Shown in pieces: positions 1-57,594 of a stretch of DNA of 64,000 nt. The position numbers were made by a program, and so were the translations under genes. A model generated the notes under the pieces. It did no database searches, had not been told where the DNA came from, and saw only the letters and a program-made list of their open reading frames with translations. Positions within the stretch are counted from its first letter, which is position 1. Each line of letters starts with the position of its first letter. The stretch is from Promethearchaeota archaeon (GTDB lineage: Archaea > Asgardarchaeota > Lokiarchaeia > Sigyniarchaeales > SOKP01): assembly GCA_019058365.1 (NCBI GenBank), contig JAHPZE010000017.1, positions 22,830 to 86,829 of the forward strand, in the 5' to 3' direction.

Positions 1-681
1 CCTTCTATGTTCTAAATTAAATATATACGAACGACTTTTTTTTAATATCTCTGAAAGCCAAGATTTTCCTCCTCCTCCTTTAATATATCGATTAAAAATG
101 AATAATAACTTGTTTAAAAAATCATCATTGCATTTCTTTTTATTGTAATCACCTAAAACCTCCAAAAAAGAATTATAGATTAGGTTATAGTTTGAAAAAA
201 TTTCTACATGTTCAGATATTTTTTTAATGGATTTTGGACGAATAACTAAATTAGTGGGTCTCTTATTTGATAATTCAAGCTGATACATCCATCTTTTTAC
301 TATATCCAAACTAACTCCCAAAATTTTAGTAATTTCAGATGCCACAATACGACCTTTAAACCGACGAAGCTTTACTCCCCCCGTAATAGTAAGATTAAGA
401 CATTTTTTTGAGGATTTTTCAAATTCCACGATCTCAGACTCAAGAATATAGATTAAATTAAATAATCTTTTTACAAATATAGTTTCAGTATTATCATTCT
501 TTCTAATAGGGTATTTCATTTTTTTACAAGATTGTACAGTTAGTACACTTTGGGGCGGATTGTGGTGAGATGTTATTTTGGGGGTAAGATATATAGGAGG
601 TTTGATGGAAGATGGAGTAGATGTTACTTTAGATGAGTAGGGATTAGGACATTGAACCTTATTTTGATCATCATAAAACAT
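1..681 (-). CDS. Partial HTH-containing protein (runs off the left edge; not in ORF track)
   Basis: Hand translation from ATG at 681 stays open to base 1 (227 codons). Pro/Ser-rich N-terminus, then two HTH-like segments, ASEITKILGVSLDIVKRWMYQLE and GKSWLSEILKKSRSYIFNLEH. Alternative start at the internal MKYPIRK. Confidence 0.6.
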   Translation of the reverse strand, partial: MFYDDQNKVQCPNPYSSKVTSTPSSIKPPIYLTPKITSHHNPPQSVLTVQSCKKMKYPIRKNDNTETIFVKRLFNLIYILESEIVEFEKSSKKCLNLTITGGVKLRRFKGRIVASEITKILGVSLDIVKRWMYQLELSNKRPTNLVIRPKSIKKISEHVEIFSNYNLIYNSFLEVLGDYNKKKCNDDFLNKLLFIFNRYIKGGGGKSWLSEILKKSRSYIFNLEHRR

Positions 682-876
682 AGTATTATTTTTTTTTTGA
701 AAAACATTAATGTCTTTATCTTTAAAAATTTATAATTTATTTATAATTACTCATAGAAAATAGTAATTTATTTAAAAAGGATTTAAAAAGGATCTTTTTT
801 GATTTAGGATCCTTGTTTCTATACAAATGATTAATAGTATTGAATTTAGAAAGTGAGATATCTATTTAAGATAACA

Positions 877-41216: not shown

Positions 41217-41651
41217 ATGGATAAAGAAAGAATTAAGAGGTATAAAGAAAAACAAGAAAAATTGAGTGAATATTTAAGTTATCTTAAAGAGTGGACTCAA
41301 GATTTAAAGGTAGAAGATTTTAATAAAACTAATATAAAAGACCAATTCTCAATTTATCATGCCTTTCAGATTGTAGTTGAAATAATTACTGATTTATCTG
41401 CTATGGTTGTAAAAGATTTAAAAAAAATTCCTAAAGATGATTACTCTAATTTAGAAAGTTTAATCAAAGATAAAATTATAAATAAAGAATTATCTTTACG
41501 TATTAAAGAAGCTAATGGATTAAGAAACAGAATAGTTCACGATTATAACAGCATTGAGGATGATATAGCCTATAAGAGTATATTAAATATTTTAAATAGT
41601 GTTAAACAATTTAAAGAGATAGTCGACGAATGGTTAAAAAAGAACAAATAA
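41217..41651 (+). CDS. HEPN (DUF86/HepT-like) RNase toxin
   Basis: GLRNRIVHDY (RX4HXY) motif. Confidence 0.9.
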   Translation: MDKERIKRYKEKQEKLSEYLSYLKEWTQDLKVEDFNKTNIKDQFSIYHAFQIVVEIITDLSAMVVKDLKKIPKDDYSNLESLIKDKIINKELSLRIKEANGLRNRIVHDYNSIEDDIAYKSILNILNSVKQFKEIVDEWLKKNK

Positions 41652-42025
41652 CTCAGATTTATAATGATTTTCAAGAGATTTTTAATAAAAAAGATATTTT
41701 AGGTGTTTTATTATACGGTTCAGTAGTAAGAGATACAGAAACCAAAAAAAGTGATATAGATATTTGTGTTGTAGCTCCTAATGAAGATAAACATCAATTA
41801 ATTTCTTTTCTTTTACAAAATATTAATGTGAATATAAAAAAATATGATGTTAGGCTTTTTTCTGAATTACCTTTATATATTAAAATTCAGATAATTGAAA
41901 AGGGTATCTTGATTTACTCACCAGATAATCTCGAATTATATGAATACTTTTACCCTTACCGAAAACTATGGGCAGATCAAAAACATCGACAAGACATTTC
42001 AAAGGAAGAACTTTTATCGATTTAA
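41630..42025 (+). CDS. Minimal nucleotidyltransferase (MntA-like antitoxin)
   Basis: LYGSVVRDTETKKSDIDICV (GSX10DXD). Overlaps the HEPN gene. Confidence 0.9.
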   Translation: MVKKEQITQIYNDFQEIFNKKDILGVLLYGSVVRDTETKKSDIDICVVAPNEDKHQLISFLLQNINVNIKKYDVRLFSELPLYIKIQIIEKGILIYSPDNLELYEYFYPYRKLWADQKHRQDISKEELLSI

Positions 42026-42073: not shown

Positions 42074-42697
42074 TTATGCAGCTTCCATAGATTTTCCTGA
42101 AAGCTTCTTGTAATGATTGAGTACTGCTTGCCGAGCTGCGTATACAAAAGCTCTCTTAACGTTTATTCCTTGAATAGCTATTGTTTCATAAACAAGCACA
42201 TGATTTAGTTTCGCAGTATCGAGAGCTTGACGTATTTTAGCTATTTCTACAATATCCTCTAAATCTCGTTTATTTGCAAGTACAACTGTAGGTACTTCCG
42301 GAGGATCAAATGCTTTTTGTGGTATCAATTTATCGCCATAAAATCGGAGTAACTCCTTTAAACTCCAGATATTTTCTCCCCATTGATCTATTAAAGAATC
42401 CCACGTAAATATTACAGCATCTGTACCCTTTAGAACAGTTTGGCGTTGAAATTTGTGACGTCTCTGGCCTGCGACAGTATAAACTTGAAATACTACATTT
42501 GAAACCCTTGCTACAACCCTATCAAAAAATAATGTTCGTCCAGTAGGATCTTGGATTTGTTGCATATCCCCTGTGGCAAGACCTTCTCGCTTATAGACCC
42601 AATCTAGCGCAGTGGTCTTTCCACCTAAACTTGGGCCATAAAAACAAATTTTAAACACAAGGGTTCCATCTCCCCGACGACTTGGCAAATATATCAA
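42074..42697 (-). CDS. MglA/Arf-like small GTPase
   Basis: G1 GPSLGGKTT, G2 TGRTLFFD, G3 TVAGQ, G4 NKRD, G5 ETIA. Confidence 0.88.
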   Translation of the reverse strand: MIYLPSRRGDGTLVFKICFYGPSLGGKTTALDWVYKREGLATGDMQQIQDPTGRTLFFDRVVARVSNVVFQVYTVAGQRRHKFQRQTVLKGTDAVIFTWDSLIDQWGENIWSLKELLRFYGDKLIPQKAFDPPEVPTVVLANKRDLEDIVEIAKIRQALDTAKLNHVLVYETIAIQGINVKRAFVYAARQAVLNHYKKLSGKSMEAA

Positions 42698-42929
42698 TCC
42701 TCGCTTTTAAAAAATATAAAATTATAAATTAAATCTTATTAATTCTATAAAACTCTTGTAATATAAAAATTTGCAAAAGAAAAGTTTTGCTATTTTTAAA
42801 TATTGAAAGGATTATTTGTATATGTATTTACTTCTAATACCCAAATATCATATCTTCGTTCTTAAAAAGTGACGTGAATTATTGTCTGGAATTAAGAGTT
42901 TTGATTTTTTGTTTTTCTAATTTTTCTTT

Positions 42930-43195
42930 TTGAGAATATTAGAAAGTAAGTTTTTTCAAGGATATAAGGAATTTAGGATTATCTATAATAAAGAGAGTCC
43001 TAAAAATATCTTTGGTGTTGGTAAACCTTCTTTAGAACATATTTATATAATTGAACAATCATTAGATGATTTTTTATTTTTGATGTAATTAAACAATGGA
43101 TCAGTAAATTGAGATCTGTAAAGGAACCATTAGAAGATGATATTAAAGATGAATTTTTAACTGAATTAGAAAATTGGAAAGAAAAATTTGGTTAA
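42930..43195 (+). pseudogene. Degraded gene remnant with frameshift
   Basis: GYKEFRIIYNKESPKNIFGVGKPSLEHIYIIEQSLDDF, then a frame change in the T-tracts near 43070-43082, then DVIKQWISKLRSVKEPLEDDIKDEFLTELENWKEKFG*. Confidence 0.4.
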
Positions 43196-43205
43196 ATAAC
43201 TGTTC

Positions 43206-44354
43206 TTAATAAAAAGGATTATGATAATTCTTCTTCTCTTTTTTATATAGTGTTCTTAATTTGATTTCTTTATCAATTAATCCCTCTATATTACATAAAT
43301 ATTCATATTCATCTTTTAAACACAGAGTTATAGCAACTCCTTTTTTACTCATTCGTGAAGTACGCCCTATACGATGAACATAATTATCGGGAAACTTTGG
43401 TACATCATAATTAAATACATGCGAAATGTTATCAATATCAAGACCTCTAGCTGCTACATCAGTGGCAATGAGTAAATTAATTTTATGTGTTTTAAATTCA
43501 TCTAATATTTTTTCTCTCTGAAATTGTGATAAATCTCCTGAAATTATGCCTACTCTGAAATTTGTGCCTTTATATGATTTTAATCTCTTTTCTAACCACG
43601 TTGCTGTTTTCTTTGTATTTACAAATACTAATGCATGGTTTGGTCTTTCAATCTTTAAAACTTGAGTAAAGGTTTTGAATTTCTCTTCAAATCTTTCAAC
43701 TAAATAATAGACTTGAGTTGTATTTCCAACAGTTAAACTGTCTCGACTTAAATTTAAAAATTCAAATTTATTCTTAGTATATTTTTGGACCAACTTTCTC
43801 ATATCAGAATCCAAAGTTGCCGAAAAAAGCATAAATTGGTATTCTGTTTGGACCTTACTAAGAATGTATTTCACATCTGGAGCAAAACCCATATCCCAAA
43901 GTCTGTCACCTTCATCGAGGACGACGAACCGAACATTTCTGAATGAGAGTTCTTTTCTTTTATAAAGATCAATTACTCTACCCGGTGTACCAACAATTAT
44001 ATTGACACCATTCTTTAATTTCTGAATTTGATCATTTATAGAAACCCCGCCATATATAGTCATTGACTTAATTCTCGGATTTCTTAAATCCTTTATAACA
44101 CTATTAATTTGCTTTGCAAGCTCTCTTGTTGGCACTAAAATTAAAGCTTCATTATTTACATATTTTAGCTGTTCGATAATAGGCAGAATATAAGCCAATG
44201 TCTTTCCAGTACCCGTCTTAGATTGAGTCATTAAATGATGACCCTCAATAATCAAGGGTATCGCTTCTTTTTGGACAGGAGTAGGATAAATTATGTTATT
44301 TCTTTTTAAAGCGACAACATTTTTTTCGTTAATTCCTAAATCTTCAAAATTCAA
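43206..44354 (-). CDS. DEAD-box family RNA helicase (motif II = DEGD)
   Basis: Q-motif PTPVQ, TGTGKT, PTRELA, TPGR, DEGD, SAT, ARGLD, HRIGRTSR. Confidence 0.93.
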   Translation of the reverse strand: MNFEDLGINEKNVVALKRNNIIYPTPVQKEAIPLIIEGHHLMTQSKTGTGKTLAYILPIIEQLKYVNNEALILVPTRELAKQINSVIKDLRNPRIKSMTIYGGVSINDQIQKLKNGVNIIVGTPGRVIDLYKRKELSFRNVRFVVLDEGDRLWDMGFAPDVKYILSKVQTEYQFMLFSATLDSDMRKLVQKYTKNKFEFLNLSRDSLTVGNTTQVYYLVERFEEKFKTFTQVLKIERPNHALVFVNTKKTATWLEKRLKSYKGTNFRVGIISGDLSQFQREKILDEFKTHKINLLIATDVAARGLDIDNISHVFNYDVPKFPDNYVHRIGRTSRMSKKGVAITLCLKDEYEYLCNIEGLIDKEIKLRTLYKKEKKNYHNPFY

Positions 44355-44606
44355 TTTTAATATTCACTAATAACTTACTTTTTTACGCTCTTCTTCAATT
44401 AAGAAAAATAAATTATAAAAGATAAAGGTTTGCTTTAAGAAAAATTAGTTTGTAATAAAACTAGATTCTAAAAAAAATTATAAACTACGTTTTAGAAAGA
44501 ATTTTCTGTAAATCAATATATTGTATTTTTTCAATAAAAAGATTTAAAATTAGCAGTTGGATTTTTTATATTGAAACTTTATAAAATATTTGATGAGGGT
44601 GATTAA

Positions 44607-45011
44607 ATGGGTAGAAAAGGTCCAACTTGGTTTGGTATAGATTTAAGTAAAAAACAAGCAACAAATTTATTTATTTTATCGTTAGCAGGTATATTTTTGG
44701 TATCGATGATTTTACTACCATTAATCTTTTCATTCATTATGTCATTGAGATCTGCCATTTTGTATGAAAATTTTGAAATGTGGATCGAATATTCTTTGTT
44801 GTATATGTTGCCTTATTTATGTATCCTAATTATCATTTTAATTATTATAATCTACTCTCTTGTAAGAAGTAGAAAGATTGCAATGTTTTATTCAGAGGTA
44901 ATAGACACCAAAAAGTCTGAATCAAGAGTACTTTCGTTCTGTCCAAACTGTGGTAATAAAAGAATGGGAGAAGAAAAATTTTGTAGAATTTGTGGAGAAG
45001 AACTGAACTAA
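44607..45011 (+). CDS. 2-TM membrane protein with C-terminal double zinc ribbon
   Basis: FCPNCG...KFCRICG. Confidence 0.85.
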   Translation: MGRKGPTWFGIDLSKKQATNLFILSLAGIFLVSMILLPLIFSFIMSLRSAILYENFEMWIEYSLLYMLPYLCILIIILIIIIYSLVRSRKIAMFYSEVIDTKKSESRVLSFCPNCGNKRMGEEKFCRICGEELN

Positions 45012-45051
45012 CTTCTGATAATAACTACTAAATTAATAAATTAGATGATTT

Positions 45052-47241
45052 TTAAATAATTTGTTTAGTAAGTTGCTCTATTTTAGTTAATTTTTGATTC
45101 AAAATCATCTTTACTTTCTCAGAAGTTATGTTTGGGTTATTCATGACTAAATCATAGACTAATAACTCACATTTCTTGCCCGTCTTTGCTAATTTCTGAT
45201 GTAAAATATCATTTTGGTCATAAATAGGAATTGGAAACATGAATGGTCTTTTATGAATATGGCGTGAACTTTTTATTAATTTTATATTCCTGGATAAATT
45301 AGGGTCATTTAATATTGCTGATAAGTAATATGCTTCATTCTCTGAAGTAGTGGAATAATAATAATTTTCAGATCCAATAATAACTTTTTGTTTCTCATTA
45401 TTTATAACAGCAGCTTTCAAATTTGATCCACTTGCGTTATAAACAACAATATAGGACGTATTATTTATCTGTTTCTTAAGCTTATTCCAATAATTTAAGT
45501 TTGCAAACAATGTGTTGATTCTACTAGTTTTCTTCTTATTTTTTTTATAAATATTATTCATTTCTTCATAAAACATCAGGGCTTTGGGGTAACTCTGTAA
45601 AAAATTTAAATCTAAATCAAATTGTTCATTAATGGGGAGAAATACATTTCTCTTACGTTTTATAAAGAAAGGAACAAGATCCATATTTAGAAACGTTTTA
45701 AATTGAAATCTTTTTTCAATCTCTTTTTCTTTAAATTGAAATTTCCATTCCGTTTTTGCACGTGATAAAACATCCGAATCAGAAATAATTATTAGGTTAC
45801 CATTTGTTTTCTGCTTTCTTTCAAAAAATATTAATGTTCTAGGAACTAATGTAGCACCTTGAAAGAATTTTTCTTTATATGAACTATTTTCTAATTTATT
45901 TAAGGTTTCTAACTCTTCAATAGGCAATAATAGTTTAGCACCATCATTTTCGATTTTTAAACTCGAATAAAATTTTTCTTCTCTTAATTCTAAACTATCA
46001 TTAAATAATTTTGTTTTTATTGGATATTTATCATCAATCAAAATATTATTATTTTTTCCCACAAACTCCGCTTTCAAACATATATGATTTACATTAAAAA
46101 AATAATTCTTTGGAAAATCCCAAATTTCTAAATTTTTGTTGAAAATAGAAAAAGCTCTAAACTTATGGCAATGATCTCCGTCAATTACGCTTTTGGGCAT
46201 TACAAAAAATACTTTCGCATTCTTTTTTAAAAAATTTGAAGGGATTGCATAAAAAAAAATTGCAGCTAATTCAATATGGGTAATATATTGACTGGGTGGC
46301 TTTATTCCTAAATTTTCTGATAAATCTCGAATTTTAATTTGATATTCCTTTAATTGTAGATCCTTATATGTCAACCAAGGTGGATTTCCAATTACTAAAT
46401 CGAATGAATTACTCATATTTTTGATATTAATATCAGTTTCCTTATCATATAGCTCAGGAAACAAAGAATCAATAAGAAAAATGTTAAGCTTCGGGATTTT
46501 AAGATTTTTTGAAGTAAAATATTCAAAGATCAATAAAAGAATATTTGTTTTTGTTGTCATAATAGCCAAAGGATTAATATCAAAACCATATACCTTTGAG
46601 ATTGCTTTAAATTTTAAAGCTGCTGATTCATGAGAATCTAGAATTTTAAGTAAGATATTGATTAAAAAATTTCCCGAACCACATGAAGGGTCTAAGGTTT
46701 TTGAACCAATTATGTAAACTTCATTAATCATTTTCTGAACAAGTTTTGAAGGAGTATAGAATTCCCCTATCTTATGTCTAGTATCTGGAAGAAATATTTC
46801 TTGATATATATCACTGAAAATGTCTTGTTGTGCATAATTTGAGAATTTAATTACACTATATATTTTTGTAAATAACTCTTTATTAAAATTAGTCCAAAAT
46901 AAATAATAGTATTCGAATATCCTTAATTCTTTCAGACTATTTGTGAGATACACCTCATAGACTTCGTCTAATTCGAGATTTTTACTAGAGTATAATTTAG
47001 AAATAACTAAAATTTTTAAAATTAGAGAAAAATAAGTATGTTTCAAAAATAGATCTGAACTAATTTCAAATCCGTAGATATTTGAAAAGATTTTTCTCCA
47101 CCGTGTAAAGCTTTGTTCATAGGATATTTGATTTTTAGATTGTTTTTTTAGAAAGGCTATAGATTGCTGATAAATTTCAGAGCTCTTGCCTAATTTTTCA
47201 GAAATAATGTGAGAGCTTATTAATTGTTTATTTTCTACCAT
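45052..47241 (-). CDS. N6-adenine DNA methyltransferase, gamma class (type IIG-like MTase + TRD; no nuclease domain seen)
   Basis: GEFYTP, LDPSCGSGNFL, GFDINP, VIGNPPW; C-terminal TRD-like region. Confidence 0.85.
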   Translation of the reverse strand: MVENKQLISSHIISEKLGKSSEIYQQSIAFLKKQSKNQISYEQSFTRWRKIFSNIYGFEISSDLFLKHTYFSLILKILVISKLYSSKNLELDEVYEVYLTNSLKELRIFEYYYLFWTNFNKELFTKIYSVIKFSNYAQQDIFSDIYQEIFLPDTRHKIGEFYTPSKLVQKMINEVYIIGSKTLDPSCGSGNFLINILLKILDSHESAALKFKAISKVYGFDINPLAIMTTKTNILLLIFEYFTSKNLKIPKLNIFLIDSLFPELYDKETDINIKNMSNSFDLVIGNPPWLTYKDLQLKEYQIKIRDLSENLGIKPPSQYITHIELAAIFFYAIPSNFLKKNAKVFFVMPKSVIDGDHCHKFRAFSIFNKNLEIWDFPKNYFFNVNHICLKAEFVGKNNNILIDDKYPIKTKLFNDSLELREEKFYSSLKIENDGAKLLLPIEELETLNKLENSSYKEKFFQGATLVPRTLIFFERKQKTNGNLIIISDSDVLSRAKTEWKFQFKEKEIEKRFQFKTFLNMDLVPFFIKRKRNVFLPINEQFDLDLNFLQSYPKALMFYEEMNNIYKKNKKKTSRINTLFANLNYWNKLKKQINNTSYIVVYNASGSNLKAAVINNEKQKVIIGSENYYYSTTSENEAYYLSAILNDPNLSRNIKLIKSSRHIHKRPFMFPIPIYDQNDILHQKLAKTGKKCELLVYDLVMNNPNITSEKVKMILNQKLTKIEQLTKQII

Positions 47242-47345: not shown

Positions 47346-47891
47346 TTATTTTCTCATAAATGTAGGTAACATTATGGAAAAGATTTCTGCAATCAATCTT
47401 AGTTTTGATTTTTCCTGAATTTTTGTAACGATTAAAATTGATTTTGATAATTCTTCTCTATCCAAAGATCCTCCCGAATAAATTGCTTGTTCAGTATTAA
47501 AAACTAAGAGAAATTTTACATTAGGATTATTTACAATGCTTATTCCTTGAATATTTTTTAAATCATCATAAATCGATATAAAATTTTTTGGAATAATACT
47601 TCTATCATTAGTGATTAGAAGAACTGGGATCCCTCGGTCGACTGTTCTTTTGAGTTCTTTTGCATAAAAGCTGTCAATGCGAGGAGCTACAACATTTAAT
47701 TGGTCTTTAGTTGAATTTATCAAATTTATTAGAGAATCATTAAGCACATTTTTCTTTTCTCCCCCACTTGATTCTATGTCTACCATTCCTACTAATGATA
47801 ATATCTTATTTTCCAAATTAGATATTTGCTCTTTCAAGTGTTTGTTTTCTACACGCAATTCTATCAAACGATCTGAAATTTTAATCACCAA
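47346..47891 (-). CDS. N-terminal coiled coil + degenerate PLD-like (TrmB-C-like) domain
   Basis: LINLINSTKDQLNVVAP..RGIPVLLITN..NVKFLLVFNTEQAIYSGGSL aligns with the HxKxxxxD..GSxN region but lacks His and Asp. Confidence 0.55.
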   Translation of the reverse strand: MVIKISDRLIELRVENKHLKEQISNLENKILSLVGMVDIESSGGEKKNVLNDSLINLINSTKDQLNVVAPRIDSFYAKELKRTVDRGIPVLLITNDRSIIPKNFISIYDDLKNIQGISIVNNPNVKFLLVFNTEQAIYSGGSLDREELSKSILIVTKIQEKSKLRLIAEIFSIMLPTFMRK

Positions 47892-47979
47892 CTCTTTTTT
47901 AATATCATTAATGAATAATTTAAATTAGCTTATATTAATATTTTATATTTATTGGTTTTTCCGAATGGATAAACTTAAT

Positions 47980-50586
47980 TCAAGACCAGATCTTTTTCCA
48001 TGGTTTTCCAAAAAGCAAATAACTCGAAATTGCTAAACTACTTCGTAAGTCTATATGTGTAGTACCCATTTCCGAAGTTGAATCTTTAACTTGTTCTTCA
48101 ATAAGTTTTTCCATCTTACTTGCTATAGATTGCTGACGTGCCTTCAGAAGCGAAACACCCTGACTATTTTTATTGAAGAAATTTATAAAGAAATTTGAAA
48201 TAATTTGCTTTGTCTCATCATTAAAAATTGGATAATTTTTTGAAACGATACCAGTAATTTTATTATAATCAAATTGAGCCACAATTTCACCGAAATTCCT
48301 AAGAGTATTTCTTAGCTTCTTCCCTTCGATATCATAAACTTGGGAATTAAAAAAAATAAATGGTTGGTTCTTCGATCTATTTTTATTTAAAATCTTATTG
48401 ATTTCATTAAAGGTTATTATTTTATTATCATTTATAAGGAAAAAACTATTCTTAGGACTCCATTTGGAGTAAAAAATATTTCCTACGAATACAATAATAT
48501 GGTATATATTTTTAGATAAATGTGATAAAATGTTTTCTCGTGTAGAATTAGCTCCAATTAATGTAGACATTTGATCAATCTCCTCTCTATTATTAAAGAA
48601 ATTAATAAGATAATCTAACTCATCCGCACCAGCTTGAAAAGGGAAAATTAATTCTTTCTGTTTTGTTTTTTCATTCCATTTTAAAGGATTATTAGAATTG
48701 ATTGATTCAATTACTAATACATTATACTTCTTATTAGATGGTTCTTCTGAAGAATCCTCACAATCACATCTTTCAAAAACAACACCACCAAGTGGAGGTT
48801 CACCCCCCACACTATAACCCTCCGAATATTTCAACAAGAAAAAATTATTATCATATATGAGATCAAAAGGAATTGTCATGTTGTTTAAGATAAAATATAT
48901 TTGAGGTATTAGATTCAAGCTTTCGATCTTAAACGATTTAAAGAAATCTCGAATTAATTTTGGTAGAAATATATATAATAATTCACCAAATTCTTTCAGA
49001 TTGAAAAGATATTTTCGATCTTCAGATTCATAGAAAAGTTCATTGTATATTTCAATTAGTTGAGTATCATTCCAATATTCATTAGAAATAAATCCTTCAA
49101 TTATCTTATCATCAACAGAAATCATTCTATAAGAAATCATCCCTATGGAATCAATTCTCAATATTATCTGTTTAATACTAAAGTCTTCATGAAATGAAGG
49201 CAATGTTTCACTATGATCATTAAATGAGTAACTTTCTTTTTTTAACGGTTCCACCTCATTATATATGGCTACGAGATCTGTTAAAAATTTATTAAAATCT
49301 TTATCTAAATAGGGAATTATTTTTTCTGCAAGGCTAAAATTTTTTTCTTCAAATAAAGCTCGATAGAACATCATTCTCCAAAAATCACGCTGCTCTAAAG
49401 AAAAAAACATAGATTTAAATTGCCATAATATATTGCTCGTATAAAAATAATGAAAAATTTGAGCATTAGTCTTGGGTAATTTTAGATGGGTGTTTAATTT
49501 TTCAAAGGATTGGAGGAGATACTTTTTTTCCTTCATATCTACAAATTTTTTACATGCTTCCACCCATAATTCTATTAAACTATGATCATAAGATAAATCA
49601 GATTTATAAATGAACAAATCTTCTAAGAAATCGTAAATATCGAATGCTATATTAAAACGATTTCTGTTTATTGAAAAATCAATAAACTTTCGTATATATG
49701 TGACAGCATCACCATATGATTGGTATTCTTGGATTTTTGAGAAAATAACACGAATAAAAATAATAATCCAAGAATACTCACCAATGTCATTTAAATAATG
49801 AATAATTTCTTCAAGATCTACTAAAATCGTGTTAAAACTTCTTTCATTAATAGCAATTCTACTTATATTACTAAATTCGTTTTTTAAATAACCAGGAAGT
49901 CGATTTACTAATACTTTATTGATTGATTTTACAAACTCAGCGGAATCATCCATTAATTTATATTTTAAAGAAACACTCTCTAATAAGATATAGATATATA
50001 AAGCTCGTTTGCTCGGTTCTAAATTAAAGATAGTTTTCCCTAATCTTTCCATACTTAAATTGAAATATTCCGAGGGTGCAACCGACTTTCTTAAAAAGAT
50101 TTGTAATATTTGTATTTCAAATAGTTTTTGATAATCCCCTCTCTCATGTAGTTTTATTGAAAAGGAGTTAATGAATTTAGTTATCCCTTTTTGGGATAAT
50201 TCTTCCTTTTTAATGAATTCTTGAAGCAGGTTCGTACAGAAATTATTAAATAAATAAAAATCATCTAATTTTGATAAAAATGAAAAAAATCTCTTGTATG
50301 CATCAATATATCTGATTAAATTTATTTCAATTTTTCCTTCTGTATGTTGTACTAATGAATTTAGATATATCCACCAAGAATTTGAAATAATCATTATTAA
50401 TTGGTGCTTCTTCTGAGCATCTAACCAATCATTCTTCTCGATTTCAAAACTTAAATTATCAAGAATTTTAGATGCCCACTTATGATTTGCGGCATATAGC
50501 AATTTCCGAGCAGTTATAATTTTATTTTGAAAATTTGTTAAAAATTGTTGTTTTAAGTCAATGCTAACGGACATGAGAATTCGCAC
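47980..50586 (-). CDS. Alpha-solenoid + degenerate CHAT (caspase/HetF-like) domain protein
   Basis: LKEFGELLY..IPFDLIYD..ELDYL..LIGANSTRENIL..YHIIVFVGN..FIFFNSQ..G.SLLKARQ..SYLLFGKP follow the CHAT motif order; long helical N-terminus. Confidence 0.7.
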   Translation of the reverse strand: MRILMSVSIDLKQQFLTNFQNKIITARKLLYAANHKWASKILDNLSFEIEKNDWLDAQKKHQLIMIISNSWWIYLNSLVQHTEGKIEINLIRYIDAYKRFFSFLSKLDDFYLFNNFCTNLLQEFIKKEELSQKGITKFINSFSIKLHERGDYQKLFEIQILQIFLRKSVAPSEYFNLSMERLGKTIFNLEPSKRALYIYILLESVSLKYKLMDDSAEFVKSINKVLVNRLPGYLKNEFSNISRIAINERSFNTILVDLEEIIHYLNDIGEYSWIIIFIRVIFSKIQEYQSYGDAVTYIRKFIDFSINRNRFNIAFDIYDFLEDLFIYKSDLSYDHSLIELWVEACKKFVDMKEKKYLLQSFEKLNTHLKLPKTNAQIFHYFYTSNILWQFKSMFFSLEQRDFWRMMFYRALFEEKNFSLAEKIIPYLDKDFNKFLTDLVAIYNEVEPLKKESYSFNDHSETLPSFHEDFSIKQIILRIDSIGMISYRMISVDDKIIEGFISNEYWNDTQLIEIYNELFYESEDRKYLFNLKEFGELLYIFLPKLIRDFFKSFKIESLNLIPQIYFILNNMTIPFDLIYDNNFFLLKYSEGYSVGGEPPLGGVVFERCDCEDSSEEPSNKKYNVLVIESINSNNPLKWNEKTKQKELIFPFQAGADELDYLINFFNNREEIDQMSTLIGANSTRENILSHLSKNIYHIIVFVGNIFYSKWSPKNSFFLINDNKIITFNEINKILNKNRSKNQPFIFFNSQVYDIEGKKLRNTLRNFGEIVAQFDYNKITGIVSKNYPIFNDETKQIISNFFINFFNKNSQGVSLLKARQQSIASKMEKLIEEQVKDSTSEMGTTHIDLRSSLAISSYLLFGKPWKKIWS

Positions 50587-50587
50587 C

Positions 50588-51799
50588 TTATTGTTCTTTA
50601 TTTTCAGTTTGATTTAACTCTTCCTTTTCTCGAGATTGTTGAGAAGATTCATGGCTGGGATTCTGAATCCATTCTTGTTTTTGTTTCAATTTTCCCTGTG
50701 CATATAATACAGAGGATCCGATCCAGCCAATATTTTCTCTTCCAGAAACAGCAATCACATTAATTTTATCCCTTATTCTTTCTGAGAAATATTTTGATAT
50801 TTCAAATTTCAACCTTATATCTAATCCCGGTATTAAACTGCTACCCCCAACAATGATAATATTCGGTAAAAAATCTTCCCAGTTTTCACGATCCCAAAAT
50901 TTAATCACTTTTGATACAGCCTCCGGTAATCCCATATAATCAATATGAATTAAAGAAGGATTAAACATTGGTTCAACAAACAAGAATCTTTCTGAATTAA
51001 TATCTAAAGAGGTTCCATCTGGTAATTCTATGGTTCTGTTATATTTAGTAAAACCATCTTTAATTCTTTTTATTTCTCCATCTGGATCTAAAATGCATAA
51101 GGATAGTTTATTTTTGATTTCCTGTGCTATTATTTTATCAAGATATACCAATTCCCCAGAACCTTTTTTCGTTAAAATCAAGTTCAAAAGATGTCTCGTT
51201 AAATCCTTGCCAGAAATGGGAAACGTATCTCTAGCCATTGCATTTGAAAATCCATGTAAAAATGAGGTGATGTTTGTATTAACTTCACCCATATTTATAA
51301 CCACACCACTAGTTTTTTGTAATGTAGCTAATACTCCTTGATTTTCAGATAAAAATAATAGAGATGGAAAATCAAATACATTAAAAAAGATTTCTTGCAA
51401 TTTAGTTTTTTCCAATTTTGACATGTAAAAAGGTGTTATTATAATAATAGGTTGTTTAAAATGATTTTCCTCAGCGATATTTAATTGTTTATAATGATGA
51501 TAAAAGTATTTCATGAAAATATTGAGATTACCCTCTTTTTTAAATTCATGAATTTTGAGGATATTTGAGTACTTTAAAGCTTCATGTCCAAATAGATGGT
51601 TTTCAGCTTCTTTTTCTGTAATAAAGATATCCTCAAGACCATCAATTACGTCTGAAGTAAAAATAAAATCCGAATTATCAACATAAATACTTGGAGCAAT
51701 AATATCTGGGAAATCATCTCCAGCCCATCCTAATCGAAAATTTTGGCTTCCAATATCAATAATAAGTGGACGTAATTGACTTTTTTCTTCAGATGACAT
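50588..51799 (-). CDS. Divergent actin / actin-related protein
   Basis: PLIIDIGSQNFRLGWAGDDFP, SGVVINMGE, SGKDLT, ELPDG, SERF..EPMFNPS, NIIIVGGSSLIPG, WIGSSV. Confidence 0.93.
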   Translation of the reverse strand: MSSEEKSQLRPLIIDIGSQNFRLGWAGDDFPDIIAPSIYVDNSDFIFTSDVIDGLEDIFITEKEAENHLFGHEALKYSNILKIHEFKKEGNLNIFMKYFYHHYKQLNIAEENHFKQPIIIITPFYMSKLEKTKLQEIFFNVFDFPSLLFLSENQGVLATLQKTSGVVINMGEVNTNITSFLHGFSNAMARDTFPISGKDLTRHLLNLILTKKGSGELVYLDKIIAQEIKNKLSLCILDPDGEIKRIKDGFTKYNRTIELPDGTSLDINSERFLFVEPMFNPSLIHIDYMGLPEAVSKVIKFWDRENWEDFLPNIIIVGGSSLIPGLDIRLKFEISKYFSERIRDKINVIAVSGRENIGWIGSSVLYAQGKLKQKQEWIQNPSHESSQQSREKEELNQTENKEQ

Positions 51800-51847
51800 T
51801 ATTAACTATATCTTTATTTTATCTTTTCAATGTTAAGAATTTACTTG

Positions 51848-52711
51848 CTATGCTATATACTTTAACTCATGGATAAATTCATCTGTAACCCGTTTTAACT
51901 GGTATTCTTTAACTTGTAATTCAAGTAGCCCTAATACTCGCTTAAATTCGCCCGACATAGACTCAATATCAACTTCAGCAACTTTCTCAATTTCATCTCG
52001 CTTAACTTTAAATTGTTCCAAATCTACTTCTATCTTTTTAAAAATATTTGAAATACTGTTTGTTAAATCATCCGTATTCTTCTTTGTAATTTTCCGCATT
52101 TTCCTCAGTATACCAAGTATATTAGAAATCGACATCTCCCATCTATCATAACTCTCACTATAACTTGTTAGTAAACCTTCGAAAAATTCTGTTAATTTTA
52201 GATAAATACTCTCCTTTTTAATAAATGAAGGCTCTTTTTTAGTAGAAGGAACTGGTATTGATTCTTCTTCGGCAGCAACTTCTTCTTTCTTGATTAGCGT
52301 TTTAGCTGCTGATTCAGGTAAAACTTGAGGTGATGGTGGCGTAGCAGCTTTTATTTGACTTTTCTGCACTGATACTTCTGGTTTTTCTTTTTCTCCAGGA
52401 ATTACGTCAGGTTTAGGTTTTTCTTTCACCCTGGCTCTTTGAGTTAATGGAATATCCTCCATTACATACGCTTCAGCTATTTTACTTCGTGATTCATGTG
52501 TTAATTGGGGTGTGATTTTTACGTCTTTTTCCGTTTTTGGATGAAGAAATCCCTGTCCTTCAGAAACACCCTTCAATAAAGTCTGTAATGTTGTTTCCGT
52601 AGATTCTGCGGAATGTAGCGCTGAATCTAGTGAATATTCAGATATCTGATCCGGATCTTCTTTTATCTCTTGAATCTTTTTTTTCTTTTCTTTCTTTTTC
52701 TTTTTCGCCAC
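51848..52711 (-). CDS. Polybasic N-terminus, disordered linker, C-terminal coiled-coil protein
   Basis: MAKKKKKEKKKK, P/E/K-rich middle, about 120-aa amphipathic helical C-terminus. Confidence 0.8.
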   Translation of the reverse strand: MAKKKKKEKKKKIQEIKEDPDQISEYSLDSALHSAESTETTLQTLLKGVSEGQGFLHPKTEKDVKITPQLTHESRSKIAEAYVMEDIPLTQRARVKEKPKPDVIPGEKEKPEVSVQKSQIKAATPPSPQVLPESAAKTLIKKEEVAAEEESIPVPSTKKEPSFIKKESIYLKLTEFFEGLLTSYSESYDRWEMSISNILGILRKMRKITKKNTDDLTNSISNIFKKIEVDLEQFKVKRDEIEKVAEVDIESMSGEFKRVLGLLELQVKEYQLKRVTDEFIHELKYIA

Positions 52712-52761
52712 TAAAAATCCCTTCTTTTTAGATTATTAATTAGTATATTATATCTTAAATA

Positions 52762-53163
52762 TTAATCTAAGGGAGAAAATCCAACTTCTAGAGCTTCTCC
52801 CTTTTCTTTTAAAATATTTTTTAACCGATCGATATTATTCGGATTTTCAGATATAGCTGTCCACACAGCTGTTTTATCCTTCTCAACAATTACAGCTTCA
52901 CTATACACTAGACCAATGCCTTCCTCGGCAAATATATCGAGTAATTTTGCTAATGCCCCTGGAATATCTTTCATTACTACTTTTACCTTAATGAGACTAC
53001 TTTCATTTCGTAATCCAATAGGAGTAATGCGGATCTCCTTTGTTTCTGAATCGCTTACTAACATTAACTGAGAATTGGTAGTTAAACCTAGATTCTTCCT
53101 AGTTACTTTAGGTAATACTATCCGACCTCGATTATCGATTATAATTATTTTCACGTCTTTCAT
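52762..53163 (-). CDS. AbrB/MazE-type DNA-binding domain + ACT domain regulator
   Basis: IDNRGRIVLPK..RKNLGL (AbrB) and MKDIPGALAKLLDIFAEEGI (ACT). Confidence 0.85.
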   Translation of the reverse strand: MKDVKIIIIDNRGRIVLPKVTRKNLGLTTNSQLMLVSDSETKEIRITPIGLRNESSLIKVKVVMKDIPGALAKLLDIFAEEGIGLVYSEAVIVEKDKTAVWTAISENPNNIDRLKNILKEKGEALEVGFSPLD

Positions 53164-53651: not shown

Positions 53652-55796
53652 TTATAGTCCTTCTTTATGAGCTTTCATTTTTACTGTTAAATCTCGTGCA
53701 CGTTTAGAGTACCAGACCAATAATTCTCCTGCATCTTCCGGTTCAAAATATTCCCCACCACATAATGATGCTGCGCGTGTCATTAACTCGCGATCTGGGT
53801 TACCTAGACCGACAATGTACGTGATAGTGTTTATATTATCTGCCAATTTTTTAATCTCTTCCAAGAAAATTTGCTTATCAGTAGGTACACCGTCTGTTAA
53901 AAGCACTATCATAGTTGGCTGGTCTGGATTCATCTTTTGGAACTCATTTAAAACATTATGGGCTTGTATCATCGCAGAACCCATATTTGTTGCTTGACCG
54001 TAAGAATTTCCTATTCGATCAACTATCATACGAGCTGCCTCTTCTAATACACCTTTTTTACCGCTTGCAGAATCCATATAAAAACTATTAGAGAAAGGGA
54101 GAATCTGAGCTTCATCAGCAAAGCGGATAACAGAAACCTTTTCACCAAATCCTCTCCCCACTTTCTCACTTAAGAAGAGGACTGCCGCAAAAGCTGCTGA
54201 GATTCTACGTGGTATATTTATTCCATCTTTGAAATGTTTTAAAAATTCTTGGATTTCTCGAGACTCCATTGCTGCTTTTATTCCCTCAATAGCAGGAGCG
54301 ATATTAGTCACAAAGACATCTCTAGCCATCATTGAACGACTTATATCAATTATTAAAATTGCGTTAAAAGGGACTAAACCAATAGGACTTAAAGATAAAG
54401 TTGTATTCTGGGTAACCCTCGCAAAAATATCACCAGTTAAATCAGGAACAGTGGCGATAATAGAACATGCAATATTTACAGCAGACCACCTAAGCTTTAT
54501 CCCCTTAAAGATAATATAATTTGAAATCCATCCCTTCATAGAATCTACGTTTTCACGAGCAGTACTTATGATTTCCCACATATTTTCACCTGAAATTGGA
54601 GAAATTCCTAGAGAAATACTTTGTAAAGGAATAATAGTCCTTTGATTTTTGTATACTTTTACTTCGAAACTTCCTATACCCGATGCTTCAAGAATTTCAG
54701 CATCAATAACGATAGTGTTTTCTGGTACAGATTCTAAAACTTCTACTTTCCCTGCGCCCATTGCTCCTGTAAGTTCATCTTCAAATGCAAGAATATCATC
54801 CATTTGAATTGATAAAGTATGTTGAGTTCTTGGACTAATCAAAGCATAACCCATTAGATTAGGTTGTGACTGAACTTCTAACATCAATTCTGAAGCTTGT
54901 TGTATAGGGGGTTCAGTAGAATATACAACAATTTGGTCTGCTTGAATGTTTGTATCTTCATAAGTATCCATACTCATTTTGATTTCATTCATACTAATAT
55001 TTGATGCATCTATCCTTGCTGATCCCATAGATCTTGTTAAAGGATCTTCCCAACCAATTAACATACCCTGACCAAGACCTAATTGTTGAAGAATACCAGA
55101 ACTCAATTGTACTCGACCCCCTTCTATACCATTATCTAACATAGGCGTAAGGATTATACCATTTTTCTGATTTTGTAACATGTTAATATCGATTCTATTT
55201 GGAAATGGTTCCACTGGCGCTGTTGGCTCAATTATTGGTTTTCCTATGCCTGGTTGGGGTATTTCCATAGGAGGAGGAGGACGAGATGGTAAAGGTGATA
55301 ATGAAGGTTGGGGTGCTGGTCTAGGTTGAGGTGCAGGCGTGGGTGTAAGTTGAGGTATAGGTGCTGGAGGTGGTGTAGGCAAAGGTGATAATGAAGGTTG
55401 GGATGCTGATCTAGGTTGAGGTGCAGGTGTGGGTGTAAATTGCGGTGCAGGTTGGGCTGTAGGCTGAGGTGCTGAAATAGGTTGGGTAGGTGGGACTTTT
55501 GGTATATGTAATGTTGGTTTGAGCTTTGCACTAGCGCTAGTCGGACGAACTGTTAATTCAACTCCCGAAAATTGTAACTCCTCCAACAAATTTTTTGAAA
55601 ATTGGCCAGCAAAATCTAAAATTGAATCTGAAATTTTTACGGAAGCAGTTTTTTTTAGATTATTATCAATATTTAAAATTTCTATTGAATCTCCATTCTT
55701 TACTCCTAATCGATCTGCATTTGATTGACAGATTATAACTTTATCTTTAATATCATTATTCACGTCGACAAATAGTTTGACTTCTTTTTCCGCCAT
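53652..55796 (-). CDS. Cdc48-N-like double-psi barrel repeats + Pro-rich linker + vWA domain protein
   Basis: Three barrel-like repeats (e.g. VIICQSNADRLGVKNGDSIEI), a Cdc48 domain-2-like segment (IIATVP...VTQNTTLSL), and a vWA domain with MIDAS DISRSM, ATNM, LLTDG. Confidence 0.75.
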   Translation of the reverse strand: MAEKEVKLFVDVNNDIKDKVIICQSNADRLGVKNGDSIEILNIDNNLKKTASVKISDSILDFAGQFSKNLLEELQFSGVELTVRPTSASAKLKPTLHIPKVPPTQPISAPQPTAQPAPQFTPTPAPQPRSASQPSLSPLPTPPPAPIPQLTPTPAPQPRPAPQPSLSPLPSRPPPPMEIPQPGIGKPIIEPTAPVEPFPNRIDINMLQNQKNGIILTPMLDNGIEGGRVQLSSGILQQLGLGQGMLIGWEDPLTRSMGSARIDASNISMNEIKMSMDTYEDTNIQADQIVVYSTEPPIQQASELMLEVQSQPNLMGYALISPRTQHTLSIQMDDILAFEDELTGAMGAGKVEVLESVPENTIVIDAEILEASGIGSFEVKVYKNQRTIIPLQSISLGISPISGENMWEIISTARENVDSMKGWISNYIIFKGIKLRWSAVNIACSIIATVPDLTGDIFARVTQNTTLSLSPIGLVPFNAILIIDISRSMMARDVFVTNIAPAIEGIKAAMESREIQEFLKHFKDGINIPRRISAAFAAVLFLSEKVGRGFGEKVSVIRFADEAQILPFSNSFYMDSASGKKGVLEEAARMIVDRIGNSYGQATNMGSAMIQAHNVLNEFQKMNPDQPTMIVLLTDGVPTDKQIFLEEIKKLADNINTITYIVGLGNPDRELMTRAASLCGGEYFEPEDAGELLVWYSKRARDLTVKMKAHKEGL
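55288..55442 (-). repeat. Intragenic tandem repeat (period 90 nt) encoding the Pro-rich linker
   Basis: TPTPAPQPRSASQPSLSPLP / TPTPAPQPRPAPQPSLSPLP; the DNA copies near 55290 and 55380 are near-identical. Confidence 0.85.
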
Positions 55797-56153
55797 CTTT
55801 ATATCATCTTAATTTCTGTTATAATTATGATTTAATATTTTCTCAACTTTTTAATATAATATAAGTGATTAAGCTTAAAATTTCTATCAAAAATGATCTA
55901 TTTTTCTTATAAATAATAACCTAATATCCGTGTAAGATAAGTATCTAGATTTGATATTGTTATAAACATAATTATCTTAATATTAAAGTTTAATAATTTT
56001 CATGGATAATGAAGTAAAAATTGATGAACGTAATTCCTAAGAGAAAAAAGATCTCAATGTTATTTATAAATAACAGTATATTAAAGACTAAGAATGCTCA
56101 TGATTAACTTTAAATTTTTAGGGAAATTACTCTTTTGAATAAAAATAGGCATC

Positions 56154-56546
56154 TCATTCATTTACTGGATAACGGAGACTTATCTCTTTCGAGTAATATC
56201 TAAACACTTTAACAATCTTTCCCAGATCTGCAGTTTCTCTTGAGGCTCCCATTAAAAAAAACCGACCCGCGGCGCTAAGAATTATAAATCCATTATCACC
56301 TCGCAATACAACCTCGAGCATATTTTTAAATCCCAATGTTGCAACTGCATCACTTCCTGATTGAACCACTACTGCACTAAGGCTTGAAAAGAGATCTGGA
56401 TCCAAATTATATCCCGGGATTGCGCTGAAAGCTAATCTTAAACCTTCTCGTGTAATAAGTGCTAACGCTTCGAGCTCGCTGTATTCAGTAATTGAGCTCA
56501 AGAAACTAGACAAAGCACTCGCTTCTTCAGGTGTTAAATCTGACAT
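56154..56546 (-). CDS. Roadblock/LC7 domain protein
   Basis: LEALALITREGL..DPDLFSSLSA..EVVLRGDNGFIIL pattern, 130 aa. Confidence 0.88.
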   Translation of the reverse strand: MSDLTPEEASALSSFLSSITEYSELEALALITREGLRLAFSAIPGYNLDPDLFSSLSAVVVQSGSDAVATLGFKNMLEVVLRGDNGFIILSAAGRFFLMGASRETADLGKIVKVFRYYSKEISLRYPVNE

Positions 56547-56760
56547 TTTTTATGGAAGTAAAAATTTGTTTTCAATTAATATAATCTAAAAAGTTTAGAC
56601 TTAAAAACTTATATCTCTAATATATATCCTCATAATTGCAAAGGTGTAGTATTTCACTTTAAAGAAAAATAAGGATTTAATAAATTTCTAAGAATCAGAT
56701 TTAATTTTTATACTTTTTAAATTTTAAATTATACAGAAAGTCGAGGAACGCGGTTTACTT

Positions 56761-57594
56761 TTATTTTCCTTCTAATTGCTCTTTAATTTGATCCTTTAAC
56801 AATTCTCTCTTGCTTTTAGCTTCCACTGGTTTAGATTTAGCGCCCATGCGTTTGAGAAATTCTATAGCAATTATTTTGCCATTCTCGCTCAAAACCCGTG
56901 GGGCATATTGCTCTGCAAAGAATATTCCCTCTGGAATCGCTCCAATCTTCGATATTTCTTTAGTAACCTGTTTTTCACCAAGGAATTGTTGAACTTTTTC
57001 TACAATTGAGTATGCATGATTACCTATAATAATCAGTTCTCTTTCAAAACCAGGAGGTATTTGTATTTCTTCTAATTTTTGCATTACTTGTTGGAAATCT
57101 ACTTGAGTTTGGTCTTGTACGAAGTCCGCCATAGACTCTTCACCTCGATATAACGGACCAATATTTTGAGCTGCTCTATCCTTGCTCCCTGCTATATTCA
57201 TACCTTCAGCAGGTTCTGGAGTGCCAAAAATATTCTTTTCTCGTAATGGATGCACATTTGGGCGGTCTACTACTGCAGCTTTTATTTCTTTTGCAATACC
57301 TGCTTCTGTTTGGCCACCAATTAGCTTAATAAATTCGGGATCTTCCTCACCCTCATCAAGTGGAACAACAGCATAGTGCATTCCAACTTGACCTCGAATT
57401 TCTTGAGATCTTTTAGCACCAATGAATTTTGATCTAACACTGCTTTTTACTCCTTTCCATAGATATACTTTTCTTGCATCATCAGAAACAAGAACATAAC
57501 ATTCATCCGTTTCTAAAATGTCTTTAATTGAACCCTCACTAGTCATTTCAGTGGTGGTACCATCTGGGTTGATAAGAAATAATTGTGGTGACAA
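56761..57594 (-). CDS. Single gelsolin-domain protein with unknown C-terminal domain
   Basis: LETDECYVLV..KVYLWKGVKSSVRSKFIGA..DEGEEDPEFIKL gelsolin repeat signature. Confidence 0.85.
   Translation of the reverse strand: MSPQLFLINPDGTTTEMTSEGSIKDILETDECYVLVSDDARKVYLWKGVKSSVRSKFIGAKRSQEIRGQVGMHYAVVPLDEGEEDPEFIKLIGGQTEAGIAKEIKAAVVDRPNVHPLREKNIFGTPEPAEGMNIAGSKDRAAQNIGPLYRGEESMADFVQDQTQVDFQQVMQKLEEIQIPPGFERELIIIGNHAYSIVEKVQQFLGEKQVTKEISKIGAIPEGIFFAEQYAPRVLSENGKIIAIEFLKRMGAKSKPVEAKSKRELLKDQIKEQLEGK

Follow-up and report, generated by a model that had tools for sequence, protein, structure and literature searches.

Across one order of Lokiarchaeia, a divergent actin-related protein (Arp) is encoded directly before a separase-shaped CHAT protein that has neither catalytic residue, and this pair appears to be nested inside a second one, an orphan helical protein and a phospholipase D (PLD)-like protein without its catalytic motif. 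The genes lie on the minus strand of a 64,000-nucleotide (nt) stretch of contig JAHPZE010000017.1 from a Promethearchaeota archaeon (assembly GCA_019058365.1), referred to here as the window. An earlier note, made from the letters alone, had proposed that five genes of this stretch encode a non-catalytic scaffold centred on the Arp. Comparison of orthologous loci points to a different arrangement, two nested pairs (Arp and CHAT inside orphan and PLD) and not one Arp-centred unit. We give roughly an even chance to the explanation that a non-catalytic Arp/pseudo-separase adaptor pair is linked to an older orphan/pseudo-PLD pair.

Conserved gene order and joint loss of Arp and CHAT

Synteny comparison bore out the expected conservation of gene order in other Lokiarchaeia: the order orphan > Arp > CHAT > PLD is kept in all three families of one order, including the two cultured species, P. 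syntrophicum MK-D1 (DSAG12_01478-01481) and Candidatus (Ca.) L. ossiferum. Of 134 genomes in the window's family, 118 have a match to the CHAT gene, which also occurs in both sister families. Between families the flanks are fully different (vWA and methyltransferase genes as opposed to Hef helicase and PHP genes), and the four-gene order is unchanged. At each of the 80 distinct loci with both genes, CHAT comes directly after Arp and often abuts or overlaps it, and neither gene was seen without the other in an intact genome. Genome G134 has a rearranged order, Arp > CHAT > orphan, and its PLD gene lies at another place; Arp and CHAT are still joined there, although a contig break interrupts CHAT. 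Genome G145 has a partial deletion.

Five genomes of two genera, among them the single-contig genome of Ca. Harpocratesius repetitus, have adjacent orphan and PLD genes and lack the operon Arp and CHAT genome-wide, as judged by family profiles at completeness values of 76-93%; three metagenome loci likewise show orphan > PLD without Arp and CHAT. Trees were built for orphan and PLD together and for PLD rooted on paralogues from other orders. Harpocratesius with its relatives forms the sister group of L. ossiferum plus MK-D1 (support 96/95 in the PLD tree), and the lineages without Arp and CHAT do not form one group, so that at least two independent joint losses are implied; the two genes thus appear to have been lost together at least twice. 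The Arp-CHAT pair is dispensable, and the persistence of orphan and PLD, adjacent and intact, in lineages without it speaks against a scaffold of all four proteins centred on the Arp. A pairing of Arp with CHAT is suggested by their constant adjacency and close spacing, by their joint loss, and by non-catalytic residues that are fixed although the genes are intact and present as single copies. The pair was found in one order only, weak CHAT matches in other orders being active paralogues where checked.

A separase-like protein with a fixed non-catalytic site

The CHAT Pfam profile matches the window protein with E 0.003 and 33 of 55 orthologues, the best with 7e-11. The predicted model (pLDDT 83.5) consists of a helical solenoid followed by two alpha/beta domains, and Foldseek ranks Csx29, DdvA and separase at the top of its matches, with Z 18-20 for Csx29 and separase. 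Residues 470-868 align with the separase protease domain (5fc2_B) with Z 18.3 and a root-mean-square deviation (rmsd) of 3.8 over 282 residues. Model, fold match and profile agree on the CHAT/separase architecture of solenoid, pseudo-protease domain and caspase-hemoglobinase fold (Table 1).

The absence of the catalytic His and Cys, first noticed in the window protein, holds family-wide, since none of 85 orthologues has either residue. A non-syntenic CHAT paralogue from another order retains both, and the register of the two positions is therefore fixed. Because the His-Cys dyad is lacking, the pseudo-separase is predicted not to be a clan CD protease despite its separase/Csx29 architecture, and its dead-site residues appear to be fixed as Asn (N703) and Gln (Q749) rather than drifting. 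The caspase-fold domain carries a family-specific beta-hairpin (residues 630-650), in which N630 and P634 are invariant and W637 and F650 are present in 84 of 85 orthologues. This hairpin is absent from the active CHAT paralogue L045 and is a candidate binding element. In most genomes of the window's family the genes are single-copy and intact, and the family profile found no active CHAT paralogue in the window's genome.

Two ciliary central-pair chains, 7n6g_1N and 9ijj_B, also match the model over its full length (Z ~11). They are perhaps a eukaryotic structural protein of solenoid and caspase fold.

A divergent Arp with a degenerate hydrolysis loop

The window Arp is a member of the actin family (Pfam Actin PF00022, E 2.5e-45, 155 bits at a cut-off of 27). 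The Asn residues reported at its D154 and H161 equivalents were confirmed as N169 and N176. Among 84 orthologues the D154 equivalent is lost in 76 (N in 63, S in 11, D in 8), and neither His at the H161 equivalent nor Gly at the G158 equivalent occurs in any. The nucleotide-pocket equivalents D11, G13, G156, K213, G301 and R335 are kept. The idea of the Arp as a pseudoenzyme therefore stands for D154 and H161 but not for the nucleotide pocket, nor for Q137, which is mostly retained; going by its residues, the protein is better named a nucleotide-binding Arp with a degenerate hydrolysis (phosphate-2) loop than a dead actin. Other Asgard non-Lokiactin Arps have also lost H161, so this loss is not special to the window Arp. 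Two family-specific invariants, W302 and F338, presumably lie on the barbed-end face, as placed by alignment to actin and by the actin structure.

In a tree of Asgard sequences the operon Arps group in a clade of their own (SH-aLRT 98) outside the Lokiactin clade, at ~27-29% identity and with D154, G158 and H161 not intact. The window Arp is the orthologue, in the same clade, of MK-D1 DSAG12_01479 and of L. ossiferum UYP47647.1. The latter is identified as the operon Arp because it is flanked by the L. ossiferum orphan UYP47648.1 and pseudo-PLD UYP47645.1. In the accessible text of its description, UYP47647.1 is one of three L. ossiferum ARPs, placed among Asgard and eukaryotic ARPs, and quantitative reverse-transcription PCR gave Lokiactin transcripts severalfold above those of this Arp (Rodrigues-Oliveira et al, 2023; PMC9834061).

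The window's genome contains two Lokiactin-clade genes (C39:111965-113119 and C34:311878-313041) among six actin-family genes, reflecting either duplication or bin contamination (6.6%). MK-D1 has two further, very divergent Arps, each last in its operon (L180:7270-14489, minus strand; L181:1534-8729, plus strand) and preceded by proteins of 1350-1380 amino acids (aa; with Ig-like domains in L180), 359-379 aa and 287-295 aa. The N-termini of the latter two proteins are longin-like by eye, and L184 has a similar layout.

The orphan/pseudo-PLD pair

The PLDc_2 Pfam profile matches the window pseudo-PLD with E 0.005. Its predicted model (pLDDT 83.1) comprises a coiled-coil helix (residues 3-33) and a single PLD-fold domain that matches NucT with Z 18.5 and rmsd 2.2 over 140 residues, followed by Nuc (Z 16.8), FAM83A (16.4), FAM83B (15.9), TrmB (14.1), TrmBL2 (12.9) and MITD1 (8.4). 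Predicted models and structure searches thus support both the CHAT and the PLD fold assigned from the letters. The lack of an HKD motif was confirmed as well: the motif His is missing in every one of 97 orthologues, none of which has the HxK of HxKxxxxD, with the exact register uncertain by one residue. The Asn of the following G-S-x-N is also missing, and the C-terminus carries an invariant LPxFMR. The model contains no TrmB-type N-terminal winged helix or DNA-binding helix-turn-helix (HTH); the pseudo-PLD profile matches a true TrmB protein across its C-terminal domain. Because dead-PLD paralogues are also encoded in further orders of this class, where their operons include longin-like and GTPase-like genes, the PLD domain is older than the Arp-CHAT pair. 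Paralogues of this kind at L051-L057, in other orders, share a C-terminal LP.F motif and lie after long coiled-coil/winged-helix and longin-like genes, or after proteins of 2340-2400 aa.

The orphan protein has a Lys-rich stretch of 15 residues at its start, a long, variable low-complexity region and a conserved C-terminal helical domain. It had been described as a polybasic coiled coil, which applies to the first 15 residues (net +7) but not to the whole protein (+1) or to its relatives: the N-terminus is acidic in the L. ossiferum and G136 orthologues. A poly-Lys tether to membrane or nucleic acid is accordingly not supported, the patch being absent in these two and the conserved part being the C-terminal helix. 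This helix forms a closed family of 81 clusters without distant relatives among 1.84 billion representatives, and searches of the ESM Atlas, PDB sequences and Pfam gave no usable match, with weak coiled-coil noise only. The name 'FlaD/E domain', assigned automatically in UniRef, could not be reproduced.

The AbrB-ACT protein (PRK08577, E 1.6e-23, below cut-off; AbrB and ACT domains) is encoded ahead of the operon in two families and in a single genus of the third. At the loci of P. syntrophicum, L. ossiferum and kin, and Harpocratesius it is missing; the unit is thus not one of five genes, and AbrB-ACT is a peripheral gene, probably a local regulator. In distant lineages a conserved helical protein of 185-191 aa is encoded divergently upstream of AbrB-ACT (L036:13520-14095, L058:7304-7876, L194:501-1058) and weakly matches the orphan profile (E 1e-5); in the window's genome it is unlinked (C47:59146-59721).

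Proposed explanation and its alternatives

We infer physical contacts, nucleotide binding, lack of polymerisation and a cellular role as follows. The Arp would bind nucleotide, hydrolysing it slowly or not at all, and would stay outside Lokiactin-type filaments. The pseudo-separase would hold it one-to-one and, through its solenoid and the dead but conserved groove of its caspase fold, would bind partner proteins instead of cutting them, so that the two could act as an adaptor, as eukaryotic Arps do inside larger complexes. The orphan and the coiled-coil pseudo-PLD would be an older pair able to work without them, with the pseudo-PLD domain serving as a dimerising binding domain like that of FAM83 or the C-terminal domain of TrmB. 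The Arp/CHAT module may then be an optional add-on to the process served by the orphan/PLD module.

Several observations weigh against this explanation. Genome G188 (single contig) has orphan > Arp > CHAT and no PLD gene, and in G134 the PLD gene lies away from the orphan, so the orphan/PLD pairing is not absolute. A single deletion takes two adjacent genes, and joint loss therefore partly reflects adjacency. Q137 is kept in 72 of 84 Arp orthologues, which makes slow ATP hydrolysis possible. Searches of longer proteins, which are weak tests, yielded neither an archaeal Arp fusion nor a long form of CHAT, and MK-D1 transcripts of 170-250 reads per kilobase per million are typical of most genes in the transcript data and give no sign of co-transcription.

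Two further checks did not bear on the pairing either way. The rates of seven neighbouring genes, compared across 24 loci, were uninformative for Arp and CHAT (residual correlation 0.15), and complex prediction with CHAT 250-864 and Arp 6-384 (55-row alignment each) gave no answer (score 0.00, controls unfolded). Fusion by stop read-through was discarded, an in-frame TAG occurring in one genome only (G261) and being taken as chance.

A clearly less probable, tentative version is that the four proteins form one stable complex made up entirely of pseudo-enzymes, in which the nucleotide-bound Arp would gate client binding by the dead separase-like protein. If true, archaea would have a counterpart of the eukaryotic Arp complexes and would employ the separase architecture for a structural purpose.

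We regard as unlikely a regulatory role at Lokiactin filaments, with the Arp and its partners capping filament ends or templating nucleation in the manner of Arp11 in dynactin or of Arp2/3. Gelsolin-like, Roadblock and Pro-rich vWA genes just upstream on the same strand in the window's family would fit such a role, as would a gelsolin-like gene after PLD at one metagenome locus, yet both cultured species lack the gelsolin cluster at this locus and genomes that lost the Arp still keep Lokiactin. The accessible main text on Lokiactin co-immunoprecipitation in L. ossiferum lists profilins, gelsolins, an ARF GTPase and BAR proteins, and names no Arp or CHAT protein (PMC13716822).

Equally unlikely in our judgement is an operon without a complex, joint loss being a by-product of adjacency. 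Unrelated neighbours (methyltransferase, DEAD helicase) are also conserved in the window's family, no fusion was found, and G134 and G188 break the four-gene set; against this, the four-gene order outlasts the complete change of flanks between families, Arp and CHAT remained joined through the G134 rearrangement, and neither was seen alone in an intact genome.

Slightly less probable again is a chromosome or nucleic-acid complex, in which the orphan helix would bind the Arp in an HSA-like manner, the pseudo-PLD would bind DNA or RNA and the pseudo-separase would grip an SMC/kleisin-like linker. In its favour, separase and the nucleases Nuc and NucT are the closest folds, TrmB and the chromatin protein TrmBL2 appear lower among the matches, a basic stretch is conserved in the orphan helix, and histone and Hef/FANCM genes precede the operon in the MK-D1 family. 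That gene context is confined to one family, however, the orphan is retained where the Arp is lost and has no profile match to HSA, and the pseudo-PLD lacks a DNA-binding HTH.

Least of all do we expect the pseudo-separase to inhibit an active caspase-like protease as cFLIP does or to partner it allosterically, or to be a degenerate defence component: the best-ranked folds belong to defence-linked TPR-CHAT proteins, related orders have active CHAT paralogues and a type II-like methyltransferase lies downstream in the window's family, but the family profile detects no active paralogue in the window's genome, none of the five genes has a PADLOC match (E 0.01), and single-copy, vertical inheritance across the order is unlike that of defence loci.

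Locus layout and neighbouring genes

The five co-oriented open reading frames (ORFs) lie where the earlier note had placed them (Table 1), with gaps of 50, 48, 1 and 88 nt in order as called. The 1-nt distance between the Arp stop and the CHAT start stands for the called frame and probably not for the true one. The called GTG at 50586 is part of an AGGTG that resembles a Shine-Dalgarno sequence, Met5 is where orthologues start, and over 80 loci the Arp-CHAT gap has a median of 21 nt; the true start is therefore probably ATG 50574, leaving 13 nt. No transmembrane segment was detected in any of the five proteins, and a scan for sigma-70-type promoters and terminators, signals unsuited to archaea, stayed at chance level. 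Many PLD orthologues have no standard start at the conserved N-terminus (window position 47876), and the L. ossiferum Arp frame (L032:11200-12291, minus strand) is open for 56 codons 5' of the first ATG, GTG or TTG; non-standard start codons are possible in both cases.

Table 1. Genes, domains and diagnostic positions of the gene cluster; positions are those of the window unless given as residues.
Feature	Position	Strand	Basis or conservation
AbrB-ACT protein, PRK08577-like, 133 aa, first gene	52762..53163	(-)	NCBIfam PRK08577 profile
Orphan protein, 287 aa	51848..52711	(-)	alignment of orthologues
Orphan, conserved C-terminal helical domain, ~120 aa	51851-52216	(-)	alignment
Divergent Arp, 403 aa	50588..51799	(-)	Pfam Actin profile
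Pseudo-separase (pseudo-CHAT), 868 aa, likely start 50574	47980..50586	(-)	model and Foldseek
Pseudo-CHAT, alpha-solenoid	residues ~9-455		model
Pseudo-CHAT, pseudo-protease-like domain	residues ~470-600		model
Pseudo-CHAT, caspase-fold domain	residues ~615-865		model
Family-specific beta-hairpin insert, caspase-fold domain, residues 630-650	48637..48699	(-)	model and alignment
N703 codon, catalytic His position	48478..48480	(-)	Asn in 83/85 distinct orthologues, His in none
Q749 codon, catalytic Cys position	48340..48342	(-)	Gln in 75/85 distinct orthologues, Cys in none
Pseudo-PLD, 181 aa	47346..47891	(-)	model and fold matches

Upstream on the minus strand (window 53652-57594) lie a gelsolin-like gene (56761-57594), a Roadblock gene (56154-56546) and a Pro-rich vWA gene (53652-55796), which recur beside the operon across the window's family and not in the MK-D1 family. 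Downstream, also on the minus strand (42074-47241), are a type II/IIG-like DNA methyltransferase, whose position is unusually stable for a restriction-modification gene, a DEAD helicase and a small GTPase with 80-90% identity across the window's family. Adjacent plus-strand ORFs of 144 and 131 aa (41217-42025) look by eye like a HEPN/minimal nucleotidyltransferase pair.

Comparison with known systems

Asgard genomes hold several Arps of open function, and how Arps came to serve in dedicated complexes is an established problem of eukaryote origins. The published Arp UYP47647.1, of the same clade as the window Arp and its orthologue, now gains named candidate partners in two cultured organisms with deposited proteome (PXD074767) and Lokiactin co-immunoprecipitation (PXD068820) data; natural deletion lineages such as Ca. 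Harpocratesius are available. The accessible text of its description gives no function, partners or gene context for it (Rodrigues-Oliveira et al, 2023; PMC9834061), and the neighbouring pseudo-CHAT and pseudo-PLD are database hypotheticals. The earlier statement that no system of such make-up has been described agrees with our search: the literature on Asgard actin with CHAT, Asgard separase and pseudoenzyme operons does not describe the module, most subscription journals being outside the search. As to anti-phage systems (Craspase, DISARM and others), PADLOC matched 0 of the 5 genes at E 0.01 and no cas genes were seen at the loci.

The pseudo-CHAT family is a whole family of separase-shaped proteins documented with its dyad fixed as Asn and Gln. 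It shares solenoid, pseudo-protease and caspase-fold domains with separase and the Csx29/DdvA-type TPR-CHAT proteins, but differs from them in that dyad, in an extra conserved hairpin and in sequence (~10% identity), and, in comparison with separase and Csx29, it is encoded with an Arp in place of CRISPR or cohesin genes. In DdvA the dyad is intact (PMC11506125), so that this protein is no precedent for the dead site.

Like FAM83 (DUF1669), the C-terminal domain of TrmB/TrmBL2 and MITD1, the pseudo-PLD has a single PLD domain without HKD; unlike them, it has no HTH, MIT domain or long tail, only a 30-residue coiled coil, and identity is 9-16%. The dead PLD domains of FAM83, TrmB/TrmBL2 and MITD1 act in binding or dimerising. 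Since active NucT and Nuc score as high as the dead domains, the fold picks no subfamily for the pseudo-PLD.

Eukaryotic Arp complexes combine a divergent Arp, with a degenerate phosphate-2 loop, and dedicated non-enzymatic partners. The pairing of a divergent Arp with such partners in dynactin (Arp1/Arp11), Arp2/3 and the INO80/SWR1/BAF modules may be analogous to the arrangement described here. Profile searches, and fold searches with the pseudo-CHAT and pseudo-PLD models, found no subunit of these complexes among the operon partners. Because the Arp-CHAT pair was found in one order only, it is more likely a parallel to the eukaryotic Arp complexes than their ancestor.

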